From a virus (Duplodnaviria; Caudoviricetes): DNA of 64,000 nt. Below, piece after piece: positions 21,603-59,391 of the stretch. Each line of letters begins with the position of its first letter. Positions within the stretch are counted from its first letter, which is position 1. The position numbers were made by a program, and so were the translations under genes. Location: the IMG/VR virus record IMGVR_UViG_3300025387_000009. The stretch is one strand, 5' to 3'. Below the pieces are notes generated by a model. That model made no database searches and was not told where the DNA came from. It saw only the letters and a list, made by a program, of their open reading frames with translations.

Positions 21603-21676
21603 GGGAGTGAAGCATTAAAGTGATGCAATAAACTTTTAATTTATTGAAGAGGGAGCGTTACCCTCCACTCCTACCA
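21603..21676 (+). tRNA. trnK: tRNA-Lys(UUU), non-canonical T-loop AGCGTTA
   Basis: GGGAGTG/CACTCCT acceptor, ATAAA-CTTTTAA-TTTAT arm, CCA. Confidence 0.8.
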
Positions 21677-22015: not shown

Positions 22016-22245
22016 ATAGTTGAAATGCTACTGGTGAACGGACTAGCTATCCGTAGTCGCCACAGGTCTCAAGTCCTGATCGTGTTGGTAACCCCAGCAC
22101 AAATGCAGAGAGCAACTACAGAAAAACAAGCAGTGCTGTGCAGACTTATGGGGGCGGTTGCAACCCACGCCATAAGATGCCGAGTCGGAGGTATTGAAAA
22201 ATATCACGGCGAAGTCCTTGACGAAGGATCAGCACCTAGTTTTTA
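22016..22245 (+). ncRNA. Candidate structured ncRNA
   Basis: Own promoter TTGCAT-16-TATAGT; several hairpins by eye; no credible ORF. Confidence 0.45.
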
Positions 22246-47206: not shown

Positions 47207-47257
47207 TATTAATATTTATGCTTTACATGACACCTTTCTATGATAAGATATTAATAC

Positions 47258-47465
47258 GGTTGGGGGGTAGCAAATCACCTAACTAGGAAACGAATCTTTG
47301 CTGATTGGTAAGTTGGGATGACTTTCTGAATGGTAACTAGCGAAGCTACAGGAGCTATGATGTTACTGATTAGAACAACATTAGCTATACGGATAGGGCA
47401 GCGTTCCACGCAGCCTTGCCCGTTGAAGAAGGAACAAAGTGCGCAACAAAATCCTTCAAACACCA
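47258..47465 (+). ncRNA. Candidate ~210-nt structured ncRNA ending in ACCA
   Basis: TTTACA-16-TAAGAT promoter, five or more hairpins, paired ends, T run after. Confidence 0.55.
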
Positions 47466-47518
47466 CGTTTTTTTTAAATGGTTTATTGAAATGTATCGTC
47501 ATAACTATAAGTATTTTT

Positions 47519-48001
47519 ATGGATAATAAATGTATATTTTGTAGTAGACAAATTTTAAATAAGGGTTCATTAACCGCTCATCAAAAAACATGCAAACAAA
47601 ATCCTAATAAAATTAAATTTTATCATTCACCAAAAGCAGGTGGTCAAAGAGGATTAGTTGGTTGGAGTAAAGGTAAAATATTTGAAAAAGAAAATCTCGA
47701 AAGGAATTTACAATTGATAGAATCCGGTGAATATAAAAAATTTGGAGAAACTCACATAAGAAGAAGAATTAAAAAATATTTGATTCATAAGCATGGTCAT
47801 AAATGCATGATATGTGGTTTAACTGAATGGAGAGGTGTACAAATACCTTTAGTTGCTGATCATATAGATGGTAATTCTGAAAATAATGATCTCTCAAATT
47901 TTAGAATAATTTGCAATAATTGTGATTCCATACTGCCAACATTCAAAGCTAAAAATACAGGTAAAGGAAGAAAGGGAAGATATTTAAAAAAATATTCTTG
48001 A
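47519..48001 (+). CDS. HNH endonuclease with N-terminal C2H-type finger
   Basis: CIFC..HQKTC; CMICG..ADHIDGNSENN..NFRIICNNCD; TAAGTA upstream. Confidence 0.88.
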   Translation: MDNKCIFCSRQILNKGSLTAHQKTCKQNPNKIKFYHSPKAGGQRGLVGWSKGKIFEKENLERNLQLIESGEYKKFGETHIRRRIKKYLIHKHGHKCMICGLTEWRGVQIPLVADHIDGNSENNDLSNFRIICNNCDSILPTFKAKNTGKGRKGRYLKKYS

Positions 48002-48034
48002 TATAAAAAAATAATTTGATAAGATATTAAAAGT

Positions 48035-48226: not shown

Positions 48227-48298
48227 GCCTGATGAGACAGCAAGAGAAGTCCACGGTCTGCAAAACCGTTATGTTCGGAGCGTTACCGAAATCAGGCT
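48227..48298 (+). tRNA. trnC: tRNA-Cys(GCA), T-loop AGCGTTA, CCA not encoded
   Basis: GCCTGAT/ATCAGGC, ACGGT-CTGCAAA-ACCGT, U73. Confidence 0.78.
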
Positions 48299-48342
48299 CA
48301 TTTTTTATGATTTTTAGACCCTTGCCTAGTAAGTATATGTAT

Positions 48343-48936
48343 ATGAATAATTTTTACTATCTATACAAAATAACCAATTTAATTAATAAAAAATATTATA
48401 TAGGTGTCCATAGTACTAATAATTTAGATGATGGGTATATGGGATCTGGAAAATTGATATTAAAAGCTATAGAAAAATACGGAAATAAAAATTTTAAAAA
48501 AGAAATATTAGAGTGGTTTAATACAGAAGAAGAAATGTACAAAAAAGAAATTGAAATTGTTAATGAAGAATTCGTAAATGATAAAACAAACTACAATGTC
48601 AAGCTTGGTGGACCAGCTAATTTTTATTATGTAAATAAAAACAAATTAAACCATAAAAAAAATCAACACTTAATACATGCTAACAAATTAAAATCTGATC
48701 CAGAATATAGAAAAAGATTTGTTGAAAAAATGAAAAATGCCTTATCAAAGGAAAAACGATTAGAGTATAGCAAAAGGATGAAAGAGAATAATTGTAATAG
48801 AAATAGATTTTGGATATCAAACGATTTTTATAAAAAATCTAAAATGGTAACACAAGAACAGTTTGATGTTCTGTTAAATCAAAATTGGTATAAGGGTGTA
48901 AAATATAGAAAGAATAGATATTCAAATCCTACTTGA
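48343..48936 (+). CDS. GIY-YIG (Seg-like) homing endonuclease
   Basis: YLYKITNLINKKYYIG..YMGSG..KYG..NFKKEILE; TAAGTA 7 nt upstream. Confidence 0.9.
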   Translation: MNNFYYLYKITNLINKKYYIGVHSTNNLDDGYMGSGKLILKAIEKYGNKNFKKEILEWFNTEEEMYKKEIEIVNEEFVNDKTNYNVKLGGPANFYYVNKNKLNHKKNQHLIHANKLKSDPEYRKRFVEKMKNALSKEKRLEYSKRMKENNCNRNRFWISNDFYKKSKMVTQEQFDVLLNQNWYKGVKYRKNRYSNPT

Positions 48937-59040: not shown

Positions 59041-59276
59041 TGAATAACAATACCAGTGTTCAAGTAAATGTAAAACTTGATGATTATTTTTTAACATTCA
59101 GACAATCGCCAGATAATTACGAATGGACTGAAATGTTTACTATGGATACTTGTTCAAGTCATTTGGACGCAAATCGTCACCCTAGAAGTTTTATGACTTT
59201 TGAAAACTATGAGCTTGATTCTATCATTAAAGCATTGACAGCATATAGAGATACTGTTAAGATGATAAGACAATAA
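59040..59276 (+). CDS. Hypothetical protein
   Basis: TAATG overlap. Confidence 0.55.
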   Translation: MNNNTSVQVNVKLDDYFLTFRQSPDNYEWTEMFTMDTCSSHLDANRHPRSFMTFENYELDSIIKALTAYRDTVKMIRQ

Positions 59277-59279
59277 TTT

Positions 59280-59391
59280 GACTAGGGTGCGAGTTCTTAA
59301 AGCTAAAGAACTTCCGCAACAGGTGATAGCGAAGCATAGTATACGATGAACGTGTAGCCTGTCCGAAGTACTGTCAAGGTATTTCCTAGTC
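59280..59391 (+). ncRNA. Candidate four-stem intergenic RNA
   Basis: GACTAGG/CCTAGTC closing stem; GAGTTCTT/AAGAACTT; ACAGG/CCTGT; AGTAC/GTATT. Confidence 0.45.

Follow-up and report, generated by a model that had tools for sequence, protein, structure and literature searches.

A compact, pseudoknotted RNA family of large phages with a predicted palindromic dimer interface

Natural assemblies built from RNA only are few, and the phage-encoded ones, GOLLD and ROOL, combine large size with an unknown function. For loop L9.3 of OLE and loop L21a of GOLLD, the argument from palindrome switching agrees with cryo-EM structures (PMC12286853), and HYER1 and HYER5 dimerise through palindromic pairing (PMC12990946). 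The locus described here lies in a window of 64,000 nucleotides derived from a large T4-like phage, with rIIA and rIIB, and holds a member of a candidate non-coding RNA (ncRNA) family that is a third of the size of GOLLD and ROOL and carries the comparative-sequence signature of a dimer bridge (Table 1).

The window contains a tRNA cluster and a tmRNA, and the ncRNA lies inside the cluster, with a divergent 120-aa gene on one side and a pair of tRNA-Ser genes on the other, where a GC content of 42–47% (47256-47467) stands out from the 24–30% of the flanks. The tRNA-Ser gene listed in Table 1 has the anticodon ACT, unusual in bacteria, which we also found in L017, L021, L029-L032, L124, L128, L131, L135 and L170; its alleles differ greatly across the phage group, and inosine editing may be needed. 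A tRNA-Cys(GCA)-like gene at 48227-48300 (+) has an aberrant T-loop, was missed by both ARAGORN and Rfam, and has a near-identical copy in L124; the same odd T-loop occurs in a tRNA at 21603-21673, also missed by ARAGORN. The cluster further contains a second free-standing endonuclease, of the GIY-YIG type and SegE-like by weak Pfam hits, at 48346-48936 (+).

Table 1. Coordinates of the ncRNA, its predicted helices and the adjoining features (positions in the window unless a record is named).
Feature	Position	Strand	Remarks
Sigma-70-type promoter of the ncRNA	47222..47249	+	-35 TTTACA (47222-47227), 16-base spacer, TG, extended -10 TAAGAT (47244-47249); putative function
ncRNA, ~210 nt	47256..47467	+	18 distinct copies; exact ends predicted from conservation
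P1, 5' hairpin	47259..47283	+	47259-64 with 47278-83; 6/6 pairs changed on both sides
K, loop-loop helix	47267..47349	+	47267-71 (P1 loop) with 47345-49 (P3 loop)
P2	47286..47327	+	47286-90/47323-27 and 47294-98/47315-19; two 5-bp halves flanking a 3x3 internal loop
PA, long-range pseudoknot helix	47300..47385	+	47300-05 with 47380-85
PB, probable helix	47306..47465	+	UGGU 47306-09 (P2 loop) with 3' ACC(A) 47462-65
P3 hairpin	47331..47368	+	47331-37 with 47362-68; 5/5 outer pairs covary
P5, long variable hairpin	47389..47423	+	10/13 pairs covary
P6 hairpin	47428..47457	+	18-base loop; best conserved part of the ncRNA
Self-complementary hexamer UGCGCA, predicted intermolecular kissing site	47440..47445	+	Palindromic in 17/17 copies
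T-run after the ncRNA, possible 3' boundary	47468..47475	+	Similar runs in L017, L132 and L170
Optional HNH cassette	47476..48016	+	Junctions compared in L017, L124, L128, L132, L170 and L193
Zinc-finger HNH endonuclease, 160 aa, free-standing	47519..48001	+	PHROG HNH families; start shared with close relatives
tRNA-Ser, ACT anticodon	48035..48123	+	Usual downstream neighbour of the ncRNA (subfamily 1) and of the closest HNH relatives
Subfamily-2 RNA arrays	L225 5216-5324; L240 3335-3550; L229 11056-11333; L269 900-1129

The initial annotation had proposed a novel structured RNA at this place and named cmscan and a homologue search as its check. Rfam returned no match for the ncRNA at gathering or E-value thresholds (to E 10 for the window, and for members of both subfamilies defined below), and BLAST against 50,697 GenBank phages found none for the ncRNA or for a neighbour gene, matching only a short piece of the HNH gene. 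DNA patterns built on the window sequence alone recovered a single relative, L017, with an ncRNA 98% identical. Relatives of the upstream gene and two more patterns led to seven further distinct copies of 59–65% identity, and a covariance model built from the resulting nine copies (subfamily 1) picked up a more distant relative, about 50% identical, from another phage record. Patterns with free central loop bases then added more copies, so that subfamily 2 comprises nine distinct sequences. In all, 18 distinct copies were recovered, with 49–98% identity to the window ncRNA, 17 of which entered the alignment, and their covariation supports the proposal of a new structured RNA; the copies form two related groups, and counts among them therefore overstate independent events. 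Every copy comes from a phage or phage-like contig, usually from its tRNA cluster, and each record searched has one. A pattern scan of 185,579 prokaryote genomes produced ten hits and no homologue, in a search where exact patterns can miss distant copies. The copies, of 208–217 nt, have no common reading frame, and a coding role was dismissed on these grounds.

The same annotation had given the RNA a promoter of its own. Taken singly, the promoter match is no better than chance, but it is retained in eight of the nine subfamily-1 copies, and the upstream DNA differs in two of those eight. Downstream, the neighbour of the ncRNA varies: a T-run followed by a new promoter, a tRNA-Ser gene (9–10 bases 3' of the ncRNA in L131 and L135), or a twister-like ribozyme, directly 3' in eight of the nine subfamily-2 copies. 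These ribozymes score below the Rfam gathering threshold with their core motifs present, and the predicted cut falls 13–17 bases beyond the ACC end of the ncRNA. With such varied neighbours the ncRNA looks as if it were freed by any means at hand, an indirect sign of expression. Very probably it is transcribed, either from its own host-type promoter or together with its neighbours in a tRNA/ncRNA operon, and released at its 3' side by the T-run, by processing of the next tRNA or by the twister.

Folded alone, the window ncRNA is only moderately better than its shuffles (z −2.5, 3/200), and the case for it therefore had to rest on the homologues. An unbiased helix scan together with pair counts yielded P1, P2, P3, P5 and P6. 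Across the 17 copies, two-sided changes were observed in 34 of the 41 nested pairs, and 91.9% of cells were paired, against 39–47% when the helices were slid, in an alignment fitted to these same helices; an unfitted alignment of nine sequences had two-sided change in 23 of 60 pairs. The strongest test made came from subfamily 2, discovered later and at about 50% identity, in which the fold set on subfamily 1 held. Duplex energies with the own partner and with that of the other subfamily were, respectively, −10.6 and −2.7 kcal/mol for P1, −7.6 and −3.9 for K, −9.9 and −3.3 for P2, −8.3 and −3.0 for PA, and −15.9 and −6.9 for P5.

The elements follow one another as P1 with K in its loop, P2 with PA and PB in its loop, P3 with K', and then PA', P5, P6 and PB', so that P2, PA and PB are mutually crossing. 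The P1 loop bears the first kissing strand of K and P3 presents the second; K is better than shuffles in 17/17 copies and exists as GUAGC/GCUAC in most of subfamily 1, as ACAGC/GCUGU in L128, and as GUAGG with CCUAC-like strands in subfamily 2. PA joins the P2 loop to the stretch after P3, has seven sequence versions, all of them pairing, and is better than shuffles in 16/17 copies; two of the four differences between the window ncRNA and that of L017 form one compensated pair within it. Both K and PA are absent from the covariance model and still conserved. Eight of nine P2 pairs covary; the stem is unbroken over 9–11 bp in the other copies, whereas the window has the weakest P2 of the family, in a register assigned by eye. 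Comparison among the copies thus demonstrates the predicted hairpins P1, P3, P5 and P6, the stem P2 and the helices K and PA. A further helix, PB, between UGGU and the 3' ACC, is proposed tentatively: it is formable in all copies, has no two-sided change, and beats shuffles in 4/17. Subfamily 2 can also form a strong 6-bp helix, GGAGCC/GGCUCC, from the base of the P3 loop to the tip of P5 (L216, L225-L229, L240 and L247), without a clear equivalent in subfamily 1; it competes with the P3 and P5 tips and could be a switch or a further intermolecular bridge.

The stems first drawn from the single sequence fared unevenly. All six sets of complementary words are present and GAAGGA/TCCTTC is conserved as drawn, but most of the others are not. 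GGGCA/TGCCC falls within the real hairpin P5 in a different register, and TAGC/GCTA is real solely as the loop-loop helix K. The stem AGCAAA/TTTGCT is unconserved (4/17 copies beat shuffles), as are AAGTT/GACTT and AGCTA..ATGTT/AACAT..TAGCT. We also discarded a long helix between the P2 3' strand and the 3' end, suggested by single-sequence folds, which breaks where P2 and P6 covary, and a hairpin UAGC-GAA-GCUA, which is disrupted in L170, L193 and subfamily 2.

The loop of P6 consists of a hexamer between two stretches of six A-rich bases. The hexamer reads UGCGCA in eight copies, UGUACA in L132 and UCCGGA in subfamily 2. Among 28 new pattern hits obtained with the four middle bases free, the palindrome was present in 14/14 true RNAs and 0/14 false hits; the true hits are related and share one hexamer, leaving two independent palindrome changes. 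Both adjacent central bases are changed in L132, from CG to UA, which is not explicable by pairing within one chain, and there is no second copy of the hexamer within the ncRNA. This switching between palindromes, with the cryo-EM-backed precedent of OLE and GOLLD, leads us to predict a homodimer. We consider it likely, from sequence comparison, that two molecules join symmetrically through the P6 palindrome; were K or PA to form between chains as well, in the manner of ARRPOF and manA, a ring or cage of more copies could result. Two hexamer versions should not cross-pair, which provides a built-in control, and in vitro transcription is easy.

On balance, we lean towards a stand-alone ncRNA of a new family, compact and multiply pseudoknotted, that would pair with a second copy of itself. 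The body would fold through P1, P2, P3, P5, P6, the K kiss and the PA pseudoknot; the P6 hexamers of two molecules would then pair into a homodimer, with K or PA between chains producing a larger assembly. Such an assembly could be a stable, non-catalytic binding surface within the translation-support kit of the phage, a decoy or scaffold that occupies some host nuclease or RNA-binding protein and keeps it from attacking tRNA or stalling translation. A decoy or scaffold role is a tentative pick among weak options, drawn from gene neighbourhood and analogy alone, and it is favoured because no protein gene co-travels with the ncRNA among the copies, the conserved loop is exposed, and the RNA is retained with tRNAs and tmRNA.

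It is rather unlikely that the RNA acts instead as a monomer whose palindrome binds a protein or pairs with something else. Many palindromic loops fail to dimerise at cellular concentration, and the changes that keep the palindrome amount to two independent events, both of which fit a monomer; however, a protein reading the loop would fix its sequence rather than its symmetry, the ncRNA offers the hexamer no second copy to pair with, and by our own estimate the chance that both variants stay palindromic is about 0.4% (15/255 squared). A new ribozyme, with an active site built by the crossing helices, seems more doubtful still. Such a role would suit an RNA of 210 nt that is so densely pseudoknotted, has conserved unpaired bases and, in subfamily 2, adjoins a twister ribozyme and other undescribed RNAs, but there a separate twister makes the 3' end, counter to self-cleavage at that point, the best conserved part is an exposed palindromic loop and not a core, and no Rfam ribozyme matched at E up to 5–10.

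The P2-loop UGGU raises the unlikely alternative of a gripper of tRNA 3' ends, in which UGGU would pair in trans with the ACCA of a tRNA, the ncRNA's own ACC would be a placeholder, and a dimer would hold two tRNAs for protection, sensing or processing. The T-box bulge and the L15 loop of RNase P pair with tRNA 3' ends. Consistent with this idea, no copy departs from UGGU, in contrast to the free covariation of every other helix, the U of UGGU is constant whether its own partner is A (nine copies) or U (eight copies), PB is weak, and the gene lies among tRNAs. A tertiary core would explain the same invariance, though, the ncRNA's own ACC is equally invariant, and the T-box motif is absent. An RNA dimer working as a protein-free machine on tRNA 3' ends, seizing them in trans through UGGU or catalysing a step on them, we hold to be improbable to the same degree; if true, such capture would be a phage tool for protecting or processing tRNAs without known counterpart.

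The reading first proposed for the locus, in which the RNA mimics a tRNA and serves the adjacent HNH enzyme as binding partner or guide, had appealed to the short distance between them and the ACCA end. The HNH ATG lies 53 bases past the ACCA at 47462-47465 and is preceded by a late-type promoter word, TATAAGTA, at 47506-47513. The HNH ORF matches phrog_10822 (E 2.3e-19) and gave no match in a Pfam search; a 223-aa ORF that public gene calls start at 47330, running over the ncRNA and hiding it, is probably a gene-caller artefact. The HNH cassette replaces about 20 bases of the empty allele, the -35 box of the tRNA-Ser promoter. In other subfamily-1 copies the tRNA-Ser promoter or gene comes immediately after the ncRNA, the promoter in the case of L017, and an HNH adjoins no other distinct copy (the L193 flank ends soon after an intact tRNA promoter). 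A complete 218-kb genome has the ncRNA and no HNH relative, the ncRNA has no match in a complete 140-kb genome whose HNH is 74% identical, and in records holding both they are kilobases apart. Eighteen HNH relatives of 43–74% identity lie in tRNA regions without the ncRNA upstream, the closest directly preceding tRNA-Ser(ACT), as in the window. This co-occurrence check, in which each partner is found without the other, contradicts the coupling of RNA and HNH and favours simple homing, the alternative already voiced in the initial annotation: judged by its optional insertion and independent distribution, the enzyme is best read as a homing endonuclease of the free-standing kind, resident in the tRNA cluster and inserted between the ncRNA and tRNA-Ser. 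Co-conversion of tRNA-Ser with the HNH was set aside because L124 has nearly the same tRNA allele and no HNH. Like the enzyme of the window, the free-standing homing endonucleases of the T4 SegB/MobE type are optional in a tRNA cluster and missing from homologous loci (PMC2330249), although SegB is a GIY-YIG enzyme, whereas ours is an HNH with an N-terminal zinc finger, for which the tRNA-Ser region is the candidate cleavage site.

The tRNA-like character fared no better. The supposed acceptor-like pairing of the 5' strand with the stretch before ACCA is absent, and neither it nor any acceptor stem or TLS pseudoknot joining the ends beats shuffles in any of the 17 copies; the 5' end lies in P1 and CCUUC in P6. 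The 3' end is ACCA in 9/17 and ACCU in 8/17 aligned copies, so that CCA is unconserved, and its ACC probably pairs internally with UGGU. We found no T-arm GUUCRANUC loop, no ARAGORN or Rfam tRNA match, and no variable guide segment in the ncRNA, which leaves a mimic that binds or guides the HNH highly improbable. HEARO or omega-RNA was rejected because RNA and nuclease are not always together, the 160-aa protein has matches to HNH families only, and Rfam gave no match; RNase P RNA, because it would require an end-joining P1 and a long-range P4 pseudoknot, which the ncRNA lacks along with an Rfam RNase P match. Words loosely resembling CR-I and CR-V, the strands of P4, with 2–3 mismatches are confined to subfamily 2, where they lie next to each other within P6 and form no long-range helix. 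A group I intron was rejected in view of the RNA's own promoter, the lack of exons and of P4-P6 between crossing helices, and the absence of an Rfam match.

Other structured RNAs accompany the family. At 59280-59391 (+) the window has a second undescribed structured RNA of about 112 nt with a closing 7-bp stem, its own sigma-70-type promoter (59236-59263) and no Rfam match; it is homologous (E 5e-11) to an element, B, that sits just upstream of the ncRNA in L216, L227, L247 and L269. A twister-like ribozyme at 22019-22116 (+) (RF03160, E 2.5e-4, below gathering) is homologous to the twister after the ncRNA in subfamily 2. In the phages of that subfamily the ncRNA stands in tandem with other unannotated structured RNAs: element A of about 109 nt, element B of about 123 nt and element C of 99–138 nt, followed by the twister, in combinations that vary between phages. 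The ncRNA also marks a phage group in which twister ribozymes and no fewer than three other undescribed RNAs recur in shuffled combinations. Its structure could be approached by cryo-EM, and it offers a way into the question of why phages maintain ornate RNAs next to their tRNAs.

Among described systems, T4 RNA species I and II (PMC2330249) are likewise non-tRNA RNA genes in a T4-type tRNA cluster, though the ncRNA has no similarity to any GenBank phage record. GOLLD and ROOL (PMC12286853) share with the ncRNA a phage-encoded location near tRNA islands, several pseudoknots, the lack of a known protein partner or function, and kissing loops that switch palindromes, as the P6 loop does by covarying between them; they differ in length (550–830 nt against 210 nt, and a defining length above 500 nt against 208–217 nt) and in helix order, their models do not match the ncRNA, and a cage is only putative for it. 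The L9.3 loop of OLE (PMC12286853), a dimer bridge, resembles the P6 loop in switching between palindromes (GGCC, GAUC, AGCU) and in its conserved A-rich loop contacts, but OLE is about 600 nt, chromosomal and membrane-bound with Oap proteins, and the ncRNA has no sequence or model match to it. ARRPOF (PMC12990946), manA and EGFOA (10.64898/2026.07.01.735769) are likewise small, under 200 to 255 nt, and form dimers up to a 60-mer through interchain loop-loop or pseudoknot contacts; their folds are other, their settings are plasmids or 5' leaders, and their Rfam models do not match. Novelty is judged here against Rfam 15 and the searchable literature, and an unnamed entry among 10,000 candidate viral RNAs (PMC10690425) may correspond to it. 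The best reading of these sequence comparisons is that the ncRNA represents a new RNA family, kin in kind to GOLLD, ROOL, OLE and ARRPOF and a member of none.
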